Shown piece by piece: positions 33,033-48,519 of a DNA stretch of 64,000 bases (position 1 is its first letter; each line of letters starts with the position of its first letter). The notes under the pieces were generated by a model that saw nothing but the letters and a program-made list of their open reading frames with translations, was not told the DNA's origin and made no database searches. Source of the stretch: an uncultured Chlamydiae bacterium (GTDB taxonomy: Bacteria; Chlamydiota; Chlamydiia; Chlamydiales; JAJFMA01); NCBI GenBank assembly GCA_963713615.1, contig CAVQMM010000001.1:3584001-3648000 (forward strand). Direction: 5' to 3'. The translations under genes were made by a program, and so were the position numbers.

Positions 33033-33329
33033 AGGAGGAGGGGGAGAGGAATAGGAGTTAGGATTTTTTACCGCCGAGACACAGAGACGCCGAGATAGGA
33101 GAGAGAGGATTAGGAGAGAATGTGCCTTTTGTGGGGCTTTGGGCAAAATTCTGCCTAAGGACCTCTTGAGAGGTTATCGTTTTAGTAAAAGCCCTTAGAC
33201 TGGATTTTGTCCAGAGCCAGCAGTAACTGAACATTCTTTCCTCTCTCTCCTAACTCGGCGTCTCGGCGCTCTCTGTGGTAAAAATCCTAATCCTTCCTCC
33301 TCCTCCTTCCTTCCCTCATTCCTTCTCTC
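33033..33329. repeat. family B palindrome with a distinct palindromic spacer
   Basis: TTTTTACCGCCGAGACACAGAGACGCCGAGATAGG ... CTCGGCGTCTCGGCGCTCTCTGTGGTAAAAATCC; purine-rich then pyrimidine-rich flanks. Confidence 0.88.
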
Positions 33330-33385
33330 GCTCCTATATACTCGATATGCTAGGCTCAGGATTAATCAGTCACAGAGGAGTGAAG

Positions 33386-35206
33386 ATGCAAGCATCTTTC
33401 CTGCAAAGCGGTATCGTTTCGGCGTGCCTTTTAGCTGCTCCTCTACAGGTCTATGCCCTTGGAGCACCAGTGACAACTGATAAAGCCCTTGTCAGCGCAT
33501 TAGAGCCAGGTCCAGTGATCATCACCGATGTAGGTCCGAGTTTCACGGTACGCATGGAGCCTTTTTCTGCTTCCATACGTAGCTTAAAGAACGCCACGCT
33601 GCAGGCCGAACGTAGCCGTGTGGGCGTCTCCAAGCACCTTATTCTGCGAGATAGCACAGGTCAGCGCATCGGCATTTTTCGTTCACAGGATGTCGGAGGA
33701 CAGATCGAAGCAGAGATCGCCGTTCTGGATCCCATTAATTTCTTCGACCTCTCGCCTGTTGTCAGTGTAAAGCTCAAGCAGGGTAAGAAGAAAGTTGAAG
33801 GCTACCTCCAGCGGTTCGAAATATCACGTCCCACAGCCCCCTCAATGGGCTATTCTTCATTTGTTCAGCAGATTCAAAAAATTGGTATTTTGGACATCCT
33901 ATTGATCAACGAGGATCGTAATATAGGCAATTTGGTCATTAAGGAAGGGGTGTTGATACCCATAGACCACAATAAGACCCTTCTGACAGATGATGGCGAG
34001 CATTTTGGACTGGATGTAGCCAAAAGGCTGTCGGAGCCTCCCTTCTGGCATCGCGTTTATCCTCGTGCGGTACACAGCCCTGTGTGGCTAGCTACAAGGC
34101 AATTTTTGCCTTGGTCGCAGAAACCTTGGACTCCCCAGAGCGAGGCATTCATTCAGCAATGGAATGTTGACCAGGTGATTAAGGAACTGAGGGGGCAGTT
34201 TGCTGTCTCTGAAGGGGCTTTGGGGGCTCTTAAAGCTATGGATACTTGGCTCAAGAAGAGTGCTGCTGCACAGCTAACCCTCGAGCAGGCTGGTGCCCCC
34301 ATTTACAATTCAAAGAGTATTTTTCAGGATATCTATCATTTGGTGAGATATGCGCGTTTTGAAGACGCCATGGAGTATGCTGGCCTTGAATATGACATGC
34401 TAGTAGCCATAGAGTTGACGCGTCATCAACTGCGCAATAGCAGTGGCAGGGTCCAGACCCCTAGCGATATCCAGAATCTATTCGATAGCATTCTCAATAA
34501 ATTGATGGATCGACGGATAGCGCTTATACAGGGCAAGTTGTCCCCTCAGGAAAAAGACGAATATATGTCTGAGGTATGGTTAAACTTGTTTTTTGAGGAT
34601 GAGCTGCATCAATGGCTAAGGGAGCATGAGGATCTGCCTAAAGAAAAACTGCGGATGATGGGTTGTCGTAATGCGCGTAAGCATACTCCTGGTGAACTTG
34701 AGGAAGGGGCTCCGCTCCCTTGCTTTGTTGAAGTTTTGGAGCTCTCCAACAAATTGATAGCATCGCGGATGGAGAAGGAGTCGGGTAGCGTAGCAGCGGC
34801 ACTGCGAGAGGGGCTCAATCACGCCTTTTTAGTGCATTTCTCTTACGTTAGTGCCCTATTAGCTGCTAAGCCCGGAACGGAAGACTATTTGCGCATGGCC
34901 CAGTTTCTGCGCTTGCAGATTGATCGATCTAACGAACTACTGATTCCTGGGGTGACCTGGACTTCCGAGCAAAATATACAAATGTCCAAAATGCCCGCGG
35001 CCGATGTCGTTGCAGTCATTGCTTTGGTTAGAAAAAAGGCGCTTGAAGAAGCGGGCTATTATCACGAAAAGCTCGGATCTGCATGGTTAGCCTTTGCTGC
35101 TCCTAAGTACATCGATGATTATCTAGATCGAGCACAGCAACTGCGTCGGCAAGTGGAAGCGGGACAGCTTGACACTGCAAAGTTTAATGAGGAATTATCA
35201 AAGTAG
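33386..35206 (+). CDS. secreted PI3/PI4-kinase-like protein
   Basis: GAGGAG RBS; signal-peptide-like N-terminus; KIGILDILLINEDRNIGNLVI...LIPIDH catalytic core. Confidence 0.7.
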   Translation: MQASFLQSGIVSACLLAAPLQVYALGAPVTTDKALVSALEPGPVIITDVGPSFTVRMEPFSASIRSLKNATLQAERSRVGVSKHLILRDSTGQRIGIFRSQDVGGQIEAEIAVLDPINFFDLSPVVSVKLKQGKKKVEGYLQRFEISRPTAPSMGYSSFVQQIQKIGILDILLINEDRNIGNLVIKEGVLIPIDHNKTLLTDDGEHFGLDVAKRLSEPPFWHRVYPRAVHSPVWLATRQFLPWSQKPWTPQSEAFIQQWNVDQVIKELRGQFAVSEGALGALKAMDTWLKKSAAAQLTLEQAGAPIYNSKSIFQDIYHLVRYARFEDAMEYAGLEYDMLVAIELTRHQLRNSSGRVQTPSDIQNLFDSILNKLMDRRIALIQGKLSPQEKDEYMSEVWLNLFFEDELHQWLREHEDLPKEKLRMMGCRNARKHTPGELEEGAPLPCFVEVLELSNKLIASRMEKESGSVAAALREGLNHAFLVHFSYVSALLAAKPGTEDYLRMAQFLRLQIDRSNELLIPGVTWTSEQNIQMSKMPAADVVAVIALVRKKALEEAGYYHEKLGSAWLAFAAPKYIDDYLDRAQQLRRQVEAGQLDTAKFNEELSK

Positions 35207-38741: not shown

Positions 38742-39110
38742 GATTTAGGATGGCAGATACGGTTCGTTTAGCTTTTTAGGAGCAACACGGATGCACACGG
38801 ATCTAGGAGGATTTAGGAGGATTGGATGGCAAAACACGGTTCGTTTAGCTTTTTAGGAGTAACACGGATGCACACGGATCTAGGAGGATTTAGGAGGATT
38901 GGATGGCAAATACCGTTCATCAATCTGAACCAATAAAATTGGTTTTTAAGATCGCATGAACACAACCCATGTTGCTTCTAAAAGGTTGAACGAACCGTAT
39001 CTGCCATCCAATCCTCCTAAATCCTCCTAGATCCGTGTGCATCCGTGTTACTCCTAAAAAGCTAAACGAACCGTGTTTTGCCATCCTTTGCCATCCTATC
39101 CTTCCCTAAA
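38742..39110. repeat. family D copy 3 (left arm tandemly duplicated)
   Basis: GGATGGC recurs at 38748, 38824 and 38901; inverted right arm. Confidence 0.95.
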
Positions 39111-39151
39111 CTGGTTTCTATTTTTTTCTCCTCCATGCTATGCTGTTTTGC

Positions 39152-40348
39152 ATGGCTGACCATCGCGGAACAATTTTTAGCGGAACTTTATTGGTTGCAG
39201 GGACGACTATCGGCGGCGGGATGCTCGCTTTGCCAGTGTCGACTGCAGCAGCGGGTTTTGTGCCGTCGCTAGTAGTCTATGTTTTGTGCTGGGCTTTTAT
39301 GGCTTGCACAGGACTGCTCCTAGCAGAGGCTTGCCTGTGGTGTAAGGATGATGCTAACGTCGTGTCCATCGCAGGTCATACTTTGGGGCGTGTGGGTAAG
39401 GCATTTGCTTGGATCTGGTACCTGTTCTTGTTCTACTGCTTAACTTTGGCATATGTCGTTGGAAGCGGTAATTTTGCCAAAGAACTTGCCGGAGAGGCCC
39501 TTTCTCAGCGCACTTCCACGTTAGCTTTCGTCTTGCTCTTTGGAATTCTTGTCTATGCAGGTCCTAAAATCGTTTCTCGTGTCAACCTTTGGCTGATGCT
39601 GGGTTTAGCCCTGGCTTATGTGGGTTTTGTCATTCTGGGTACTCCTAACATCGATGTGGCTTTACTGGAGCGAAGAGATTGGTCTCAGACTTTTAATGCC
39701 CTTCCTATTGCTTTTGTCGCTTTCGCCTATCAAGGGCTTGTACCCACTCTCAGTCGCTATATGGCCTACGATCTTAAGCGCATTCGCGCATCCATTCTAT
39801 TGGGTACTTTTGCGACACTTGTTTGCTATATCATTTGGCAGGCGTTGATTCTAGGTATTGTTCCGTTGAATGGCCCTGGGGGGCTTGCCGAAGCAAAAAT
39901 GGCTGGTCAAAGCGCTGTACCGCCTCTCAAGCAGTTTTTGCAAAATCCCTATGTCTATGACTTGGGTCAGTTCTTTGCCTTTTTTGCCCTGACAACTTCT
40001 TTTTTGGGGGTTTCCTTGGGCTTAGTGGATTTTCTGGCCGATGGACTAGGGGTCAAGAAGACCCCTGTCGGAAAGTTGCTGTTGTGCTTAATGGTTTTTA
40101 TTCCTCCGCTGATTCTTGCGGAGCTTTATCCTACCGTATTTTTGTCAGCCCTGGATTTAGCAGGTGGGTTCGGTGTAGCGCTCCTGCTGGGGCTCTTGCC
40201 CATCCTTATTGTTTGGGCAGGTCGCTACTTTCATCATCTAACCGGACCTCACCTGCTACCTGGTGGCCTTTGGATTCTTCTTCTCCTTTTGCTTTTCGTC
40301 GTCATCGAAGTGACAATCGAAGTTAGCCATCTTTTCGTCAGGCTATAA
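39152..40348 (+). CDS. tyrP: aromatic amino acid (tyrosine) transporter, HAAAP family
   Basis: GTLLVAGTTIGGGMLALP, FFALTTSFLGVSLGLVDFLADG; follows glmS as in Chlamydia. Confidence 0.88.
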   Translation: MADHRGTIFSGTLLVAGTTIGGGMLALPVSTAAAGFVPSLVVYVLCWAFMACTGLLLAEACLWCKDDANVVSIAGHTLGRVGKAFAWIWYLFLFYCLTLAYVVGSGNFAKELAGEALSQRTSTLAFVLLFGILVYAGPKIVSRVNLWLMLGLALAYVGFVILGTPNIDVALLERRDWSQTFNALPIAFVAFAYQGLVPTLSRYMAYDLKRIRASILLGTFATLVCYIIWQALILGIVPLNGPGGLAEAKMAGQSAVPPLKQFLQNPYVYDLGQFFAFFALTTSFLGVSLGLVDFLADGLGVKKTPVGKLLLCLMVFIPPLILAELYPTVFLSALDLAGGFGVALLLGLLPILIVWAGRYFHHLTGPHLLPGGLWILLLLLLFVVIEVTIEVSHLFVRL

Positions 40349-40349
40349 T

Positions 40350-40784
40350 TTAGCGATCTTCCCATGGCACCGGAGGATGATCTGACGTTTCAGCTGGGAA
40401 ATAGTGCTGACTATGATTTGGCGTCATCATCATCAGGCTGTGTCTTGGCAAACGCCAGTAGCTATAGCCAGGAGTTCGGAAGGTTTGGGGAAACCATAGG
40501 TCTCCATATCGATAGGGATTGCCAAAGCCTAATCTATAGTAGGGATATCCTCCGTAAAAATAATAACCATGTCCCCATCCCCACGAGCCATTTGCTGCGT
40601 ACAGCAAGTGAAATCCAGGGGAACCTACTCCGCGTATGGCTGCTAATAATGACGTAGTTGCCCGGTTGGGCTCAGTGTTCGCAAAGGTGTTTCCTTTTGC
40701 AGGGCCTTCGCGTAGTGATTCCAGACTCCAGCACAATAGGAGTGTGGCAATAACAGACGATAATATAAATATGTGTAATTTCAT
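40350..40784 (-). CDS. secreted Tyr/Gly-rich small protein
   Basis: Signal-peptide-like N-terminus; GHGYYFYGGYPYY. Confidence 0.6.
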   Translation of the reverse strand: MKLHIFILSSVIATLLLCWSLESLREGPAKGNTFANTEPNRATTSLLAAIRGVGSPGFHLLYAANGSWGWGHGYYFYGGYPYYRLGFGNPYRYGDLWFPQTFRTPGYSYWRLPRHSLMMMTPNHSQHYFPAETSDHPPVPWEDR

Positions 40785-40891
40785 ATTTTGAGTCTCGTGT
40801 TTAATTAACAGTTACGGGTCACTGCATCTTTTATTATAGAAATCGATTATTATCGTGTAAATATAATTTTTTATTAACTACTTTAAATAGA

Positions 40892-40920
40892 AAAGCCTTG
40901 TGAATAATTCACAAGGCTTT
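40892..40920 (-). terminator. intrinsic terminator after ORF 40939-41316
   Basis: AAAGCCTTGTGAA-TAA-TTCACAAGGCTTT, followed by a T-rich tail on the minus strand. Confidence 0.7.
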
Positions 40921-40938
40921 GGATATTATAATGAGATT

Positions 40939-41316
40939 TTAGTGACGATGACCTCCGTGACCCATTCCTCCTCCGCGGCCTCCATGCCAATCCCCTCCTC
41001 TCCCTCCATAACCTTCGTTGTAGGACCCATAATATGGATAATCACCATAGATATAGTTCCCCCCTGTGTAATAGTCATACTGTTGATATGGATCGAAATA
41101 GTAGTCTGAGTCATTGTCGTCGTAATTATAACTATTATAGTTTCTGTCGTAGTTGTAATCATTGTCGTAGTCTCTATATCCATCACCATGGTCAAAATGA
41201 ATAACGATTGCTACCAATTTTGGGGAACTGACAGTTGTCGCTTGAAGATGAGTATTTGGTGTACTAATGAATAGCATGATAGCGGCAATAGGTACAAACA
41301 ACCATGTCGAGTACAT
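40939..41316 (-). CDS. secreted Tyr/Asp/Gly-rich small protein
   Basis: GGAGG RBS; signal peptide; 21 of 125 residues Tyr; RGG/His tail; has its own terminator. Confidence 0.8.
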   Translation of the reverse strand: MYSTWLFVPIAAIMLFISTPNTHLQATTVSSPKLVAIVIHFDHGDGYRDYDNDYNYDRNYNSYNYDDNDSDYYFDPYQQYDYYTGGNYIYGDYPYYGSYNEGYGGRGGDWHGGRGGGMGHGGHRH

Positions 41317-41444
41317 ATATCCTCCTGTGTCAAAATAAAGTATCGAGCTATAACAAAACAGAAATTAGCGAATTAATTTAATATTAAACTCGCCTATACA
41401 GCTATTATATTTGTCGTGGAATGTAATGTCAAATTTGTAATACT

Positions 41445-41482
41445 AAGTGGTCTCGCTGGATGAAACTCCAGAGAGACCACTT
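41445..41482 (-). terminator. hairpin downstream of ORF 41669-42031
   Basis: AAGTGGTCTCGCTGGA...TCCAGAGAGACCACTT. Confidence 0.55.
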
Positions 41483-41502
41483 CAGAAGTCGTGAAAAAAA
41501 CT

Positions 41503-41662
41503 GGCCTTGTTCGGCTTTCCGGGCAGAATTTCGGTCAGGCGAGAGGTCCCAGATGCAGCAGTCGACGACGAGGGAATAGCGCTAGCTATTGCCGAGGAGG
41601 CGAATGCTGCAGATGGGCGCCTCGCAGCCGACCGAAAACTGCGCGAAAAGTCGAACAAGGCC
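41503..41662. mobile_element. MITE family A, diverged subfamily A2, 160 bp, with 8-bp TSD
   Basis: GGCCTTGTTC...GAACAAGGCC; AAAAAACT duplicated at 41495-41502 and 41663-41670. Confidence 0.92.
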
Positions 41663-41668
41663 AAAAAA

Positions 41669-42031
41669 CTACCACGGGTAAGAGTAGTAATAGTCTTGTT
41701 CTTGGTAGGGGGTGTAGTAGTGAGGTTGAGTAGGAGTATAAAGATAGGTGGGTTCATCTAAGTAGTGATCTTCATAGGGGTAATAGGGATAGTAATTCGG
41801 ATAATCCTGATAGTAAGGATAGTGGTAGTGATGATAATGGTAGGGACGATACCAGTGATGATGCCCGCCCATTCTAATATGCCCACCCATCCTAATATGC
41901 CCGCCATGCCCGCGGGCAATTAAAGAGGTCCGAGGTGCAGATGGTGTAGGAGTGCTGTTACTGTAGAGACAGATACTGGGAAAAATTAATGCGATCGCGA
42001 GAATAGGGATGAAGAATAGTTTCGAGTACAT
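41669..42031 (-). CDS. secreted Tyr/His/Pro-rich small protein
   Basis: Signal peptide similar to ORF 41316 (MYS...); GGHIRM x2; 25 of 120 residues Tyr. Confidence 0.8.
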   Translation of the reverse strand: MYSKLFFIPILAIALIFPSICLYSNSTPTPSAPRTSLIARGHGGHIRMGGHIRMGGHHHWYRPYHYHHYHYPYYQDYPNYYPYYPYEDHYLDEPTYLYTPTQPHYYTPYQEQDYYYSYPW

Positions 42032-42131
42032 ATAACCCCCTTTGTGGGGACATTACGAGTAGGAGGAGAAAATATATTATTCCCTCTGTATTATATTATA
42101 TTAGTTAAATATTTTAATGAATAGATTAACG

Positions 42132-42291
42132 GGCCTTATTCACCTTTGCGGTCAGTTTTCGGTCGACTGCAAAAGGATCGTCTGTCGCGTTTTGCTCCTC
42201 GGACATAGCTGGCGCTATGCCCTCGTCACAAACCACGACATCCGACCTTTTTCGTCCGACCGAAATTCTGACCGTAAAGGTGAACAAGGCC
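42132..42291. mobile_element. MITE family A, 160 bp, with 8-bp TSD
   Basis: Same sequence as 544-703; GATTAACG duplicated at 42124-42131 and 42292-42299. Confidence 0.95.
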
Positions 42292-42411
42292 GATTAACGC
42301 AATGGTGTAAAGAGGGATTCACTTGCAGCATGATCATACTGTTCCATCTCATTTTGCCTAATTTTCTTAGCTTAACGTTTTGCGCCTTCGCGTTAAAATT
42401 TAGAGGAACCG

Positions 42412-43344
42412 TTAGTTCTCGAAGAGAGCTTCGACATAGGCTTCGGGATCGAAAGGAATCAAGTCATCGGCACCTTCACCGACGCCGATGAATTTCACAG
42501 GAATACCGAGTTTGCGTTGGATGCTGACGACGATGCCGCCTTTGGCGGACCCATCTAGCTTGGTAAGGATGAGACCTGTGACTGGCGTGAACTGATTGAA
42601 AATTTTGGCTTGATCGACAGCATTTTGACCTGTCGTGGCGTCCAAAACAAGCAAGGTTTCATGAGGGCTTCCGGCTAGGACTTTGCCACAGGAGCGGCGG
42701 ATTTTTTCGAGCTCTTGCATCAGAGGCGTTTTGGTATGCAGGCGTCCGGCGGTATCGAGAATGACTACATCGACCCCGCGCGCCTTGGCGGCGGTGACAG
42801 CATCGAAGGCTACAGCAGCAGGATCAGCTTTCGGTTGACCTTTGACGAGATCGACATCAACACGTTTGGCCCACATTTCGAGTTGTTCGATAGCAGCGGC
42901 GCGAAAGGTGTCCGCGGCTCCCAAAAGGACTTTTTTTCCTTCAGTGGTAAAGCGCTTGGCCAACTTTGCTACTGAGGTCGTTTTACCATTACCATTGACA
43001 CCGACGATGAGGATGACTGTGGGTTCGCCTAGGTTGGTATTTTCATTGATACCTGGATCCTGGCGGCCAATCATTGCTAGGATTTCGCTTTTAAGAGCTT
43101 GGATAAGAGCATCGCCCTTAAGAGATGGATCTTGACGATACAATTCTTTGATTTTGTTGGTGAGGTCGCCCGCCGTTTCCACTCCTAGATCGGCCTCGAA
43201 GAGCAGTTCTTCGAGCTTGTCTAAGGTTGTTTCATCAAGTTTGGAGCTAAAAAGCGAGCGAAGTCGACTACTCAGCGCCGCGCTAGTTTTAGCTAGCGCT
43301 TGCTTCACTTTATTATACCCAGATTTTAGAAAATGCAGTACCAT
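42412..43344 (-). CDS. ftsY: signal recognition particle receptor FtsY
   Basis: [34 protein letters not shown]; start uncertain (43344 or 43386). Confidence 0.96.
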
Positions 43345-43449
43345 GCGGGTGAAGCCTTCTTTTTGCATTGGTTCATATTTTGCCACGCGCGCGCGTAGGG
43401 GTTAAGCTAACAGCTTAGCAGAGATAGAATTATCCTCAAAGGTCACCCA

Positions 43450-46995: not shown

Positions 46996-48519
46996 CTAGT
47001 GAATTTGGCTCAGTGCTTCCTCATTTAGCTTATACAGCTCCGCATAGCTAACAGCATTGCCATCGAGGAGCTTGTTCCAGTCGGCGTTACCATTGCGGTC
47101 TATCTCAGTATGCATCGTCAAGGGTCCAGTGGGCAAGTTTACATCGGCGCGTACAGTGTTAGGCATTAGATTGACCGAACCCTCGTCCACGACGTTGTAA
47201 AGCAGACATTTTTGACCTACCAGTTCGTCGCATGTACAGCTAATCGCTACACTATCGGCGATATCAACAGTATTGGCGGTCACACCAACCAGCAGGCTGT
47301 TGCGAATGATGCCTTTTTTGATGTGGCATCCGATAAGCACTGAGCTCTCGTCGACATCAAGCTCATCTTTAGCTAATTTTCGGTTATCGCTGCTGAAGAA
47401 AGTTCGAATGGCAATTCCTTCAGCATCTTTTTTAGTGAGCTTCAAGCAGTTATCGTAATAGGCCCTGAGGGTACCAAAATCCCACCAATAGCTATCCTGC
47501 CCTACATCGATAACCCCTAGAAATGGCGTTGTGCTATCACCTGCGATGCGCTTTCTCAGATTTTGCATGCGCAGATGATGACTTTGAGCGCCTGCCTTGG
47601 GTGTGCCTTTGGATACCATGACTCGGACATAGGTCTCTTCATCCAACGTTAGAGGCATCCACCAATGGGGATCGCTATCAAGCTTTCCCTTCTTGGCGGT
47701 AAGCTCAGGAGAAAATTCAGCCAATAGGCCTTCCAACAACTCAAGAGACAAGCTAAAGCTGCCTAAGCTCGTACCAAAGTTGTCTGTCGCCTTGACGATA
47801 TTGTCGCTGATCAGTCTTTGGAGTGTGTCATAATCCACTTTTTCTAGCTGCTTAGCGTCGCCATCGGACGAGATAGCCAGTAAGCCATAGCGACTAAGGC
47901 CTTTGGCATCCCAGACCTCTCGCGAGGGTAATGGAATAACACAGGCTAAGATGTCCGCATGGGTATGGGCTGTAGTCGGCTGTTTGGAGGGGATAAAGAT
48001 CTGATCACCCCAGAAGACCGATAGGCGGCCCTTACGTTTTTCGCCGAATAGGGCGGTCTGTCGTATAACAGCCTCTAGGATAGTGAGAAAATCCGAGGAG
48101 TCCGCATCAACTTTGAGGTTAGGGAGTTTGACCGCAGACTTATTATTACGTTCACTACCGGGAAGCGGCGCTAGGCGCGTGCCTTGACCGGCTGTATGGT
48201 ACATAGCTACAGAGGCCCCTTGGCGTTGTAGCTCGAGCAGGTCCATGTTATACAGTTGCTGTCCCTTGATAACAGCCTTTTGAAAGGCATAGAGAGTTCC
48301 AAGGGCATTCCCAGCACCACCAGGCCAGTCCTCTTGGATGACGATGACCTTAGTATCTACCGGTAGGCTATACCCGGCTGATTGGGCAAGCTTTTGCTGC
48401 CAATAGGCCTCTTGCTGACCATTGTTAGTCACGACAATAACAATGTCCATCCCTTCATCAGGCGGTGAGGCAAGGCTCATCGCTTTCACATGGTGTAGTA
48501 GCGTTTCCTCTGCGTTCAC
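46996..48519 (-). CDS. sugar-1-phosphate nucleotidyltransferase-like protein (GlgC/fucose pyrophosphorylase-like)
   Basis: AGQGTRLAPL...NNKSAV, FWGDQ and WWDFGT motifs; beta-helix-like C-terminus. Confidence 0.6.
   Translation of the reverse strand: MNAEETLLHHVKAMSLASPPDEGMDIVIVVTNNGQQEAYWQQKLAQSAGYSLPVDTKVIVIQEDWPGGAGNALGTLYAFQKAVIKGQQLYNMDLLELQRQGASVAMYHTAGQGTRLAPLPGSERNNKSAVKLPNLKVDADSSDFLTILEAVIRQTALFGEKRKGRLSVFWGDQIFIPSKQPTTAHTHADILACVIPLPSREVWDAKGLSRYGLLAISSDGDAKQLEKVDYDTLQRLISDNIVKATDNFGTSLGSFSLSLELLEGLLAEFSPELTAKKGKLDSDPHWWMPLTLDEETYVRVMVSKGTPKAGAQSHHLRMQNLRKRIAGDSTTPFLGVIDVGQDSYWWDFGTLRAYYDNCLKLTKKDAEGIAIRTFFSSDNRKLAKDELDVDESSVLIGCHIKKGIIRNSLLVGVTANTVDIADSVAISCTCDELVGQKCLLYNVVDEGSVNLMPNTVRADVNLPTGPLTMHTEIDRNGNADWNKLLDGNAVSYAELYKLNEEALSQIH

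Follow-up and report, generated by a model that had tools for sequence, protein, structure and literature searches.

Among the described proteins that invite comparison with the genes treated here, coccidian oocyst GAM56/82 and Bacillus CotC/CotU are Tyr-rich proteins of walls and coats, which are cross-linked by peroxidases or specific to spores, and the squid beak proteins carry a GHGxY repeat. OmcA and OmcB, which make up the disulfide network of the chlamydial elementary body (EB), are rich in Cys and have their own Pfam domains. In squid beak His-rich proteins and in spidroins, furthermore, secreted and disordered chains rich in Gly/His/Tyr or Arg/Tyr assemble through His–Tyr and Arg–Tyr contacts, according to two reports (PMC6884462, PMC12772222). 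Here, we describe three small open reading frames (ORFs), A, B and C, which encode Tyr-rich proteins between tyrP and ftsY in a stretch of 64,000 nucleotides (hereafter, the window) from the 3.97-Mb genome of an uncultured Chlamydiae bacterium (G000), whose closest named FtsY relatives are chlamydial metagenome-assembled genomes (MAGs). The three belong to a real family, which is conserved, predicted to be secreted, expressed at the EB stage in relatives and undescribed in the literature searched; by analogy, it would act most like the coacervating animal proteins and the Tyr-rich proteins with which resistant stages build their structures, being a member of none of the groups tested.

All three ORFs lie on the reverse strand, namely A at 40350–40784 (144 aa with 12 Tyr), B at 40939–41316 (125 aa with 21 Tyr) and C at 41669–42031 (120 aa with 25 Tyr), and an earlier note on this DNA was right about their number, common orientation, lengths and Tyr contents. 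As had also been claimed there, each has a hydrophobic, signal-peptide-like N-terminus (judged from hydropathy alone, both here and in the relatives below), the word YPYY and a motif of the type [S/K]-L-[L/V/I]-A, i.e., SLLA at residues 45–48 of A, KLVA at 33–36 of B and SLIA at 36–39 of C, where it ends a linker. The rest of the chain is a Gly/Trp/Tyr middle part in A, an Asp/Asn/Tyr core with a C-terminal RGG/Gly/His tract in B, and a Gly/His tract with a Tyr/Pro-rich half in C. B and C both start with MYS, and the similarity upstream that had been reported for two of the ORFs was found between them, at 74% identity over 53 nt that include the ribosome-binding site and the start; B is likely an old duplicate of C. 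C is a member of the main family and the best match of the family profile in G000 (E 2.5e-12), as it is by construction row 1 of that profile. A forms its own subfamily of seven proteins, seen only in the taxonomic family of the window's genome and sharing the C-terminal motif TPGY..WRLP..N..HYFP..DHPPVP, so that the variable core once ascribed to all three ORFs does not describe A. A Pfam scan of A, B and C gave no match. When 10,618 six-frame ORFs were filtered by composition, 15 that combine a signal-like start with high Tyr were kept, three of which are adjacent here; because of this figure, and because relatives retain the slot and purifying selection acts there, the cluster is beyond chance.

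The DNA 3′ of ftsY was then compared at 88 loci, 80 from 150 listed FtsY matches (chosen for closeness and spread) and eight from earlier loci, with a filter that required a hydrophobic N-terminus and a body poor in aliphatics but rich in Tyr or His/Gly. From the 71 matches, seven were removed (antisense or fewer than nine Tyr); the remaining 64 family ORFs come from 38 genomes, out of 81 that were informative, and these 38 represent 10 families and one unassigned MAG; no family ORF was seen at 43 informative loci, and seven further loci were too short to tell. This count is a floor, since an orthologue of A in L001, for example, escaped the filter. All 64 ORFs are co-oriented with ftsY, with one to six per locus and a median length of 118 aa, and they include Waddlia chondrophila ADI37794.1, E. 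lausannensis CRX39148.1 and hypothetical proteins of Protochlamydia, Neochlamydia and Parachlamydia. The ratio of nonsynonymous to synonymous substitution (dN/dS) was 0.18–0.31 in all seven congeneric pairs, and two within-genome pairs gave 0.18 and 0.34: the family is under purifying selection. Pairs that involve the window were saturated (A) or too divergent, and the values against genome G001 (0.68 for B and 0.65 for C, at 30% identity) are not trusted. The expectation of conserved and secreted proteins was borne out by homologs with dN/dS of 0.18–0.31, with secretion as predicted, while a match to an already characterised family, which the earlier note had considered, did not appear above threshold, the family giving only sub-threshold matches in Pfam and NCBIfam.

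Other searches returned little. Three chance matches (E ≥ 0.036) came from a sequence search of the PDB, every match in the ESM Atlas was below the 0.9 bar, and a profile search of a 5.8-billion protein set, limited by low complexity, gave three matches for the main family and seven for A. One A-type protein (P0018) is labelled Nitrosomonas sp. and lies on a 5.6-kb contig, which is likely a mis-binned chlamydial contig. For 13 of the 23 distinct family-like ORFs looked up, a collection of 15 billion held no letter-for-letter entry, and no description of the family was found in the literature searched, a set that lay apart from subscription proteomics papers. Standard tools miss the family: W. 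chondrophila wcw_0422 is a singleton orthogroup in a published supplement (PMC7760296), and one Protochlamydia copy is apparently annotated in the wrong frame. Ortholog clustering fails in particular because composition and a few motifs, not the exact sequence, are conserved. The genome-wide family profile matched in 27 of 80 genomes and missed six known carriers (including three small f36 genomes, f44, f5 and f3), so that its blanks are not absences. On a quick FtsY tree with weak deep support, the family label was clustered, requiring 11 changes against 27.7 when shuffled, which need not mean that the family arose once.

Pooled over the mature chains, Tyr makes up 21%, Gly 19%, Ser 8% and His 7% of the residues, with aliphatics at about 5%, and Cys is absent from 61 of the 64. 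There is an order along the chain, with Gly/His/Trp/Arg in the first half and Tyr/Pro/Ser/Asn in the second, Tyr reaching 38% in the fourth fifth. A lipobox was present in one of the 64 and a Tat signal in none, and YPYY occurs in just 19. Over 194 ORFs of G000, the signal-like segment ends in LxA in 70 and in AxA in 45; LxA directly after the hydrophobic stretch is probably a signal-peptidase site, because it is the commonest such end in this genome, and what is unusual in the sequences would probably be a second, later cleavage-like site. A polar linker ends in [EQD][VI]A in 17 of the 64 family ORFs against 13 of 194 other secreted-like ORFs, and 19 of the 64, from six families, have a terminal G[VIL][YF][FLVIY] strand (shuffle mean, 0.9); both motifs were chosen with the sequences in view, and the shuffle tests therefore make them look stronger than they are.

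This arrangement had been likened in the earlier note to precursors of ribosomally synthesized and post-translationally modified peptides (RiPPs), i.e., a leader and a variable core that dedicated enzymes modify, and the second cleavage-like motif after the signal peptide (17–26 of the 64) and a RimK-like gene on the opposite strand at one locus (L122, by eye) would be in keeping with the idea. The leaders are nonetheless hydrophobic and of the Sec type, and their first 28 residues are less conserved than the rest in five of eight pairs (one of the five having a doubtful long start), equally conserved in one and more so in two. No modifying enzyme, transporter or protease is common to the loci, whose neighbours were assigned by eye and, for four glycosyltransferase-like genes, by scanning, and the only radical SAM gene considered in the window lies 21 kb away and reads by eye as RlmN-like. 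With no more conserved leader than core and no enzyme common across loci, we consider RiPP precursors to be highly improbable.

Structure prediction favored no particular reading of the family. AlphaFold2 gave A, from a five-row alignment, a predicted local distance difference test score (pLDDT) below 50 for residues 28–130, with the signal helix alone being confident, and a further prediction had a pLDDT of 0.39; low confidence on shallow alignments is, however, weak proof of disorder. With at most two short strands per chain, the eight or more amphipathic strands of a beta-barrel were not found. When four copies of the Waddlia-type mature chain were modelled as a complex, the score was 0.02, which is evidence neither way.

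We favor, with a probability of roughly 0.45, the reading that exported, disordered and Cys-free family proteins self-assemble, in or on the EB envelope, by contacts of their aromatic residues and without cross-linking enzymes. It was chosen because Tyr is conserved together with His/Arg/Trp in Gly spacers, and such a grammar drives the coacervation and the hardening of squid-beak and silk proteins (PMC6884462, PMC12772222). Each gene would be transcribed from its own promoter, as promoter matches and RNA contigs suggest, at the EB stage, which published tables document for relatives and which is presumed for A, B and C. The product would be exported by Sec and cleaved at the predicted LxA site, and a short polar linker leads on to the second site, [E/Q/D]-[V/I]-A, which would likely be a pro-peptide boundary. 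The mature chain, predicted to be disordered, with its Gly/His/Trp/Arg half, its Tyr/Pro/Ser/Asn half and often a terminal G-V-Y-F-x-F strand, could then condense through Tyr–Tyr, His–Tyr and Arg–Tyr contacts into a gel or a fibrous mesh beside the OmcAB disulfide network, the terminal strands being possible nucleators. Such a layer might make the EB harder or protect it while it is outside the host, or else give it a sticky surface.

The link to the extracellular stage, which the earlier note had proposed, is supported in relatives. In the published tables of a Waddlia study, wcw_0422 (WCW_RS02030) has a value of 1403 in EBs and 231 in reticulate bodies (RBs), i.e., 6-fold (log2 fold change −2.60, adjusted P 3e-51), with Hc1 at −2.01 and ftsY at +0.39 in the same comparison; 479 genes were EB-up in that study, so the pattern is not rare (PMC6090853). 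Tables of another study put wcw_0422 at about eight times ftsY per base (PMC7760296). In Protochlamydia, the tabulated data assign pc1304, just before tyrP, to the late II class, as omcB, and give pc1808 a mean log2 reads per kilobase per million (RPKM) of 8.0 at 2 h post infection (hpi), 2.7 at 48 hpi, 3.4 at 96 hpi and 7.9 in the extracellular stage; pc1808 is hence about 5 log2 units above 48 hpi in EBs, where it is also marked as detected in the proteome (PMC5451489). This gene lies between znuB and ndh, the position of a 117-aa family ORF in L172, and the L172 frame is annotated in strain W-9. As for pc1304, the annotated 73-aa ORF (SPJ31823.1) of P. amoebophila UWE25 lies in the +1 frame, on the same strand, inside a 103-aa Tyr-rich ORF (L086:3903–4214), and its counts likely report the transcript of the latter because the strand is the same and the counts are strand-specific. 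PMC2811131 mentions pc1304 solely when listing predicted outer-membrane proteins (OMPs) that are species-specific; the "integral OMP"/pCOMP label of this gene likely refers to the other frame and may be an artefact of it.

For the window, RNA contigs of identical sequence from peat metatranscriptomes covered A in 4/4 runs, C in 3/4 and about half of B in 2/4, the neighboring 20 kb having 0–9% listed cover in the same four runs; these were 4 of 20 runs, chosen with the stretch containing the ORFs. The uncovered tyrP and most of ftsY do not signify silence, and contigs cannot rank genes. They support transcription of the three ORFs weakly, because the runs were chosen by the ORF stretch, the libraries may hold DNA, and neither strand nor level is given.

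Several observations weigh against a structural layer of the EB. Under iron starvation, wcw_0422 is steady (log fold change −0.26, false discovery rate 0.20) while omcA, omcB and hctA fall in the tables of PMC7760296, and it is thus unlike a classical late gene there; the supplement of PMC4989314 has a Euo peak for ftsY but none for wcw_0422, and the main text of the Waddlia outer-membrane proteomics paper does not name it. In the tables of PMC5451489, pc1304 is absent from the EB proteome, and pc1808 belongs to the early I class, which the authors linked to host entry and not to envelope building. Judging from the reading frames, furthermore, the annotated frame of pc1304 is probably wrong, and both Protochlamydia genes were assigned to the family by gene position. 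Expression is far below that of omcB (about 1,800 vs 10,700 per kb per million), net charge ranges from −14 to +12 across the family with no single chemistry in common, and no member turned up in many of the chlamydial families that likewise produce EBs. Finally, sigma54-type sites, which occur upstream of 5/67 genes from three genera (shuffle mean, 0.17; 34/2570 genome ORFs), were absent from A, B, C and 11 paralogue candidates of G000. Late genes of C. trachomatis are driven by sigma54 (PMC7482065), and the excess of such sites upstream of family genes itself counts in favor of the structural reading; sigma28 and Euo motifs were not enriched upstream of the family genes.

The early class of pc1808 leads to the main rival, in which the exported chains, with their many aromatic residues, would bind glycans of the host or of a substrate as lectins do, or act in the first hours after infection, forming no structural layer. 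The high level of pc1808 in EBs and at 2 hpi, in a class that the authors tied to invasion (PMC5451489, tables), agrees with such a role, as do the fusions of the module to PKD/Ig-like domains, the language-model neighbors auto-named BA14K-like at 0.87 (below the 0.9 bar), and a copy number of 1–6 with fast divergence, which fit host interaction. A BA14K or lectin domain was, however, found in 0/39 members, dN/dS shows purifying and not diversifying selection, and an anchor is missing (the lipobox in 1/64). We regard an adhesin or entry factor as unlikely, while noting that it may overlap with the structural layer. The fusions, in which the family N-terminal module of two G000 paralogues is joined to PKD/Ig-like domains scoring below the Pfam cut-off, fit an extracellular role and count for the structural layer as well. 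The two genes (L160:4835–5890 and L161:7496–8110; G000 C1 1656834 and 1671496) encode an LIA/LLA motif and a Gly/His/Tyr module before these domains, and the L160 protein carries at its C-terminus an additional beta-rich domain, to which nothing in Pfam matched. Elsewhere in G000 there are a 351-aa protein and nine more ORFs for small secreted proteins rich in Tyr/His/Gly, the nine having been selected by eye among 29 candidates.

The self-assembly reading can be carried further, to a picture that we offer tentatively and hold to be somewhat unlikely: environmental chlamydiae would build a second, Cys-free layer of the EB envelope from Tyr/Gly/His proteins of an ancient family, which, once processed, would condense through stacking of their aromatic residues, as a bacterial parallel to the coacervation of squid beak or silk; the N-terminal module would also be a self-assembling tag carrying Ig/PKD domains into the layer, and absence of the family elsewhere would mark a difference in the length of EB survival outside a host. 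OmcAB alone accounts poorly for the way these EBs persist in soil and water, and wcw_0422, pc1808, pc1304 and CRX39148.1 are concrete targets in cultured strains for the make-up of the EB envelope. Should its members self-assemble, the family would provide a case, from bacteria, of structural proteins that coacervate outside the cell.

Tyr at 21% of mature residues, EB-stage expression in relatives and the lack of Cys would also suit a coat cross-linked through dityrosine or 3,4-dihydroxyphenylalanine (DOPA), as in oocyst walls or spore coats. The family shares with GAM56/82 and CotC/CotU a richness in Tyr and a link to a resistant extracellular stage; it differs in having no homology to them and in that no common oxidase was found among its carriers. 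G000 has three cytochrome P450 genes (C1 1088797, 3798093 and 134150, with no match in the four other chlamydial genomes tested), and host enzymes or metal/oxidant chemistry could do the cross-linking. In G000, however, DyP, a multicopper oxidase (Cu-oxidase_3) and a class I heme peroxidase were not found; class I peroxidase was found in none of five other family-bearing genomes, P450 in one of five genomes and cytochrome c peroxidase in two of five, and no oxidase was seen beside any of the family loci listed. The searches for tyrosinase and animal peroxidase had no working positive control. pc1808 is, in addition, detectable by ordinary proteomics (PMC5451489, tables). The dityrosine-cross-linked coat of the earlier note, with no cross-linking oxidase common to carriers among the enzymes searched, is therefore a very unlikely account. 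For a curli-type amyloid, no curlin match was seen in 39 members, and CsgG was found in 0/5 genomes, where the control worked.

A His content of 7% over the family, together with the long GGHH tracts of f32 and of C, would suit a periplasmic or surface scavenger, whose His tracts would bind Cu/Zn and whose Tyr/Trp would take up oxidants or antimicrobial peptides when amoebae attack. One dispersed copy adjoins znuABC, and a secreted low-complexity domain of Moraxella is reported to trap antimicrobial peptides in droplets (PMC11022072). His tracts are, however, absent from many members, such as the Arg/Tyr-rich f27, f38 and f46 forms, charge varies, and the tables of PMC7760296 have no iron-starvation response. 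We thus consider scavenging to be quite unlikely, if a shade less so than the cross-linked coat.

Returning to self-assembly by aromatic contacts, we compared the family with the known systems. It resembles OmcA/OmcB in its predicted Sec export, in the late or EB-stage expression of relatives (pc1304 in late II with omcB) and in its proposed structural role; unlike those Cys-rich, disulfide-linked proteins, it is low-complexity and free of Cys (61/64), and no Pfam match to their domains (Chlam_OMP) was found in it. G000 encodes its own OmcB-like genes. The squid beak GHGxY repeat occurs in 0/64 family ORFs. To the squid beak His-rich proteins and spidroins (PMC6884462, PMC12772222) the likeness is that of secreted, disordered chains rich in Gly/His/Tyr or Arg/Tyr, by prediction for the family; those are animal proteins with no homology to it, and its assembly is proposed by analogy. 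The proteobacterial proteins of BA14K (PF07886), DUF2502, PXPV and DUF6515 also have a signal peptide, a short pro-piece and an aromatic low-complexity body, and are the nearest language-model neighbors at 0.77–0.87 (under the 0.9 bar of the tool); no member matches those Pfam models, and the likeness seen is one of layout. P0013, an unnamed proteobacterial protein, has a family-like layout with a terminal GSGVSIYLQF strand, and such a design may, on this sequence, be widespread beyond chlamydiae. Plant glycine-rich proteins (PF07172) likewise combine a signal peptide with GGH/GGY tracts, and 2/39 members match them (best E 2e-4); these matches are compositional, one scoring 21 bits against a cut-off of 30.

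The slot itself is bounded by tyrP (39140–40348, forward strand, PF03222), which is convergent with the three ORFs, and by ftsY (42412–43386, reverse strand, PF00448), which is co-oriented with them. In 22 loci the stretch fetched holds ftsY, the family and tyrP together, and the family is convergent on tyrP in most intact loci. It lies beside ftsY without tyrP in 10 of 16 listed loci from six genera (of the other six, four are too short, one is unclear and one has tyrP just beyond) and beside tyrP without ftsY in three (L166, L168, L173), and dispersed copies are present in L167, L169, L170 and L172. Because rearranged loci keep the family next to just one of the two genes, be it ftsY or tyrP, the place is an ancestral slot with no functional link to tyrosine import, as the earlier note had suspected when it allowed that the nearness of tyrP might be coincidental. 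A tyrosine store coupled to the TyrP importer could have explained the convergent arrangement in those 22 loci, and is largely refuted by the separated loci, the family being apart from tyrP in 10 genomes; it also lies on the opposite strand, its proteins are predicted to be exported, and in the tables of PMC5451489 tyrP transcripts are mid-cycle against late for pc1304. We give such a store scarcely any credence. In L100, L138 and L146, from families without Tyr-rich genes, the ftsY–tyrP gap holds a YccA/BI-1-like membrane gene (by eye), as it does in C. trachomatis (CT819). Glycosyltransferase-like genes adjoin members in several Parachlamydiaceae-like loci (L086:995–1573, L099, L107, L110, L111) and one G000 paralogue (L161:6546–7421), an arrangement that some loci lack but that might point to glycosylation.

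On the reverse strand, sigma66-type promoter matches were found for A (40833–40861, 11/12), B (41404–41432, 12/12) and C (42090–42117, 10/12). In W. chondrophila, published peaks include one of ParB in chromatin immunoprecipitation (465401–465450) at the 3′ end of ftsY beside wcw_0422 and one of Euo (466151–466200) at the ftsY/sucC divergent promoter (PMC4989314, supplement). Own hairpin terminators had been claimed for two of the ORFs: this holds for B, which is followed by an intrinsic-terminator-like hairpin with a U-tail (40892–40920, reverse strand, z −5.0), but not for C, where the stable single-copy hairpin downstream (41445–41482, unstranded, z −5.3) has no U-tail on the strand of C and is separated from it by a copy of a miniature inverted-repeat transposable element (MITE). 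This copy (41502–41663) begins 6 nt past the stop of C, and a second (42126–42297) lies between ftsY and C; both are unstranded and outside the system. The AT-rich spacers of the earlier note are likewise so in parts only (26%, 33% and 29% GC), since two of them carry these 160–170 bp copies of 60% and 51% GC. The MITE family has 129 near-full-length copies of about 160 bp in the genome, with GGCC-ended inverted repeats and 8–9 bp target duplications, and many are 100% identical, so that it has been recently active. A second, REP-like repeat family, whose 77-bp units form both tandem and inverted arrays, lies between glmS and tyrP (38748–39102) and has 115 merged loci genome-wide.

A few further genes were noticed. 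A different secreted family, rich in Cys and Tyr and with C..RYVPQYY repeats but no Pfam match, is present in two chlamydial families (G000 C1 100765–101268 and L179:4075–4629) and is a candidate for an additional disulfide envelope protein. Within the window, a 507-aa ORF with no Pfam match (46996–48519) reads by eye as an enzyme of the nucleotidyltransferase/fucose-pyrophosphorylase type, and a 643-aa ORF with a signal peptide (33275–35206) has a PI3/PI4-kinase domain (E 1e-10), making it a eukaryote-like candidate secreted kinase.

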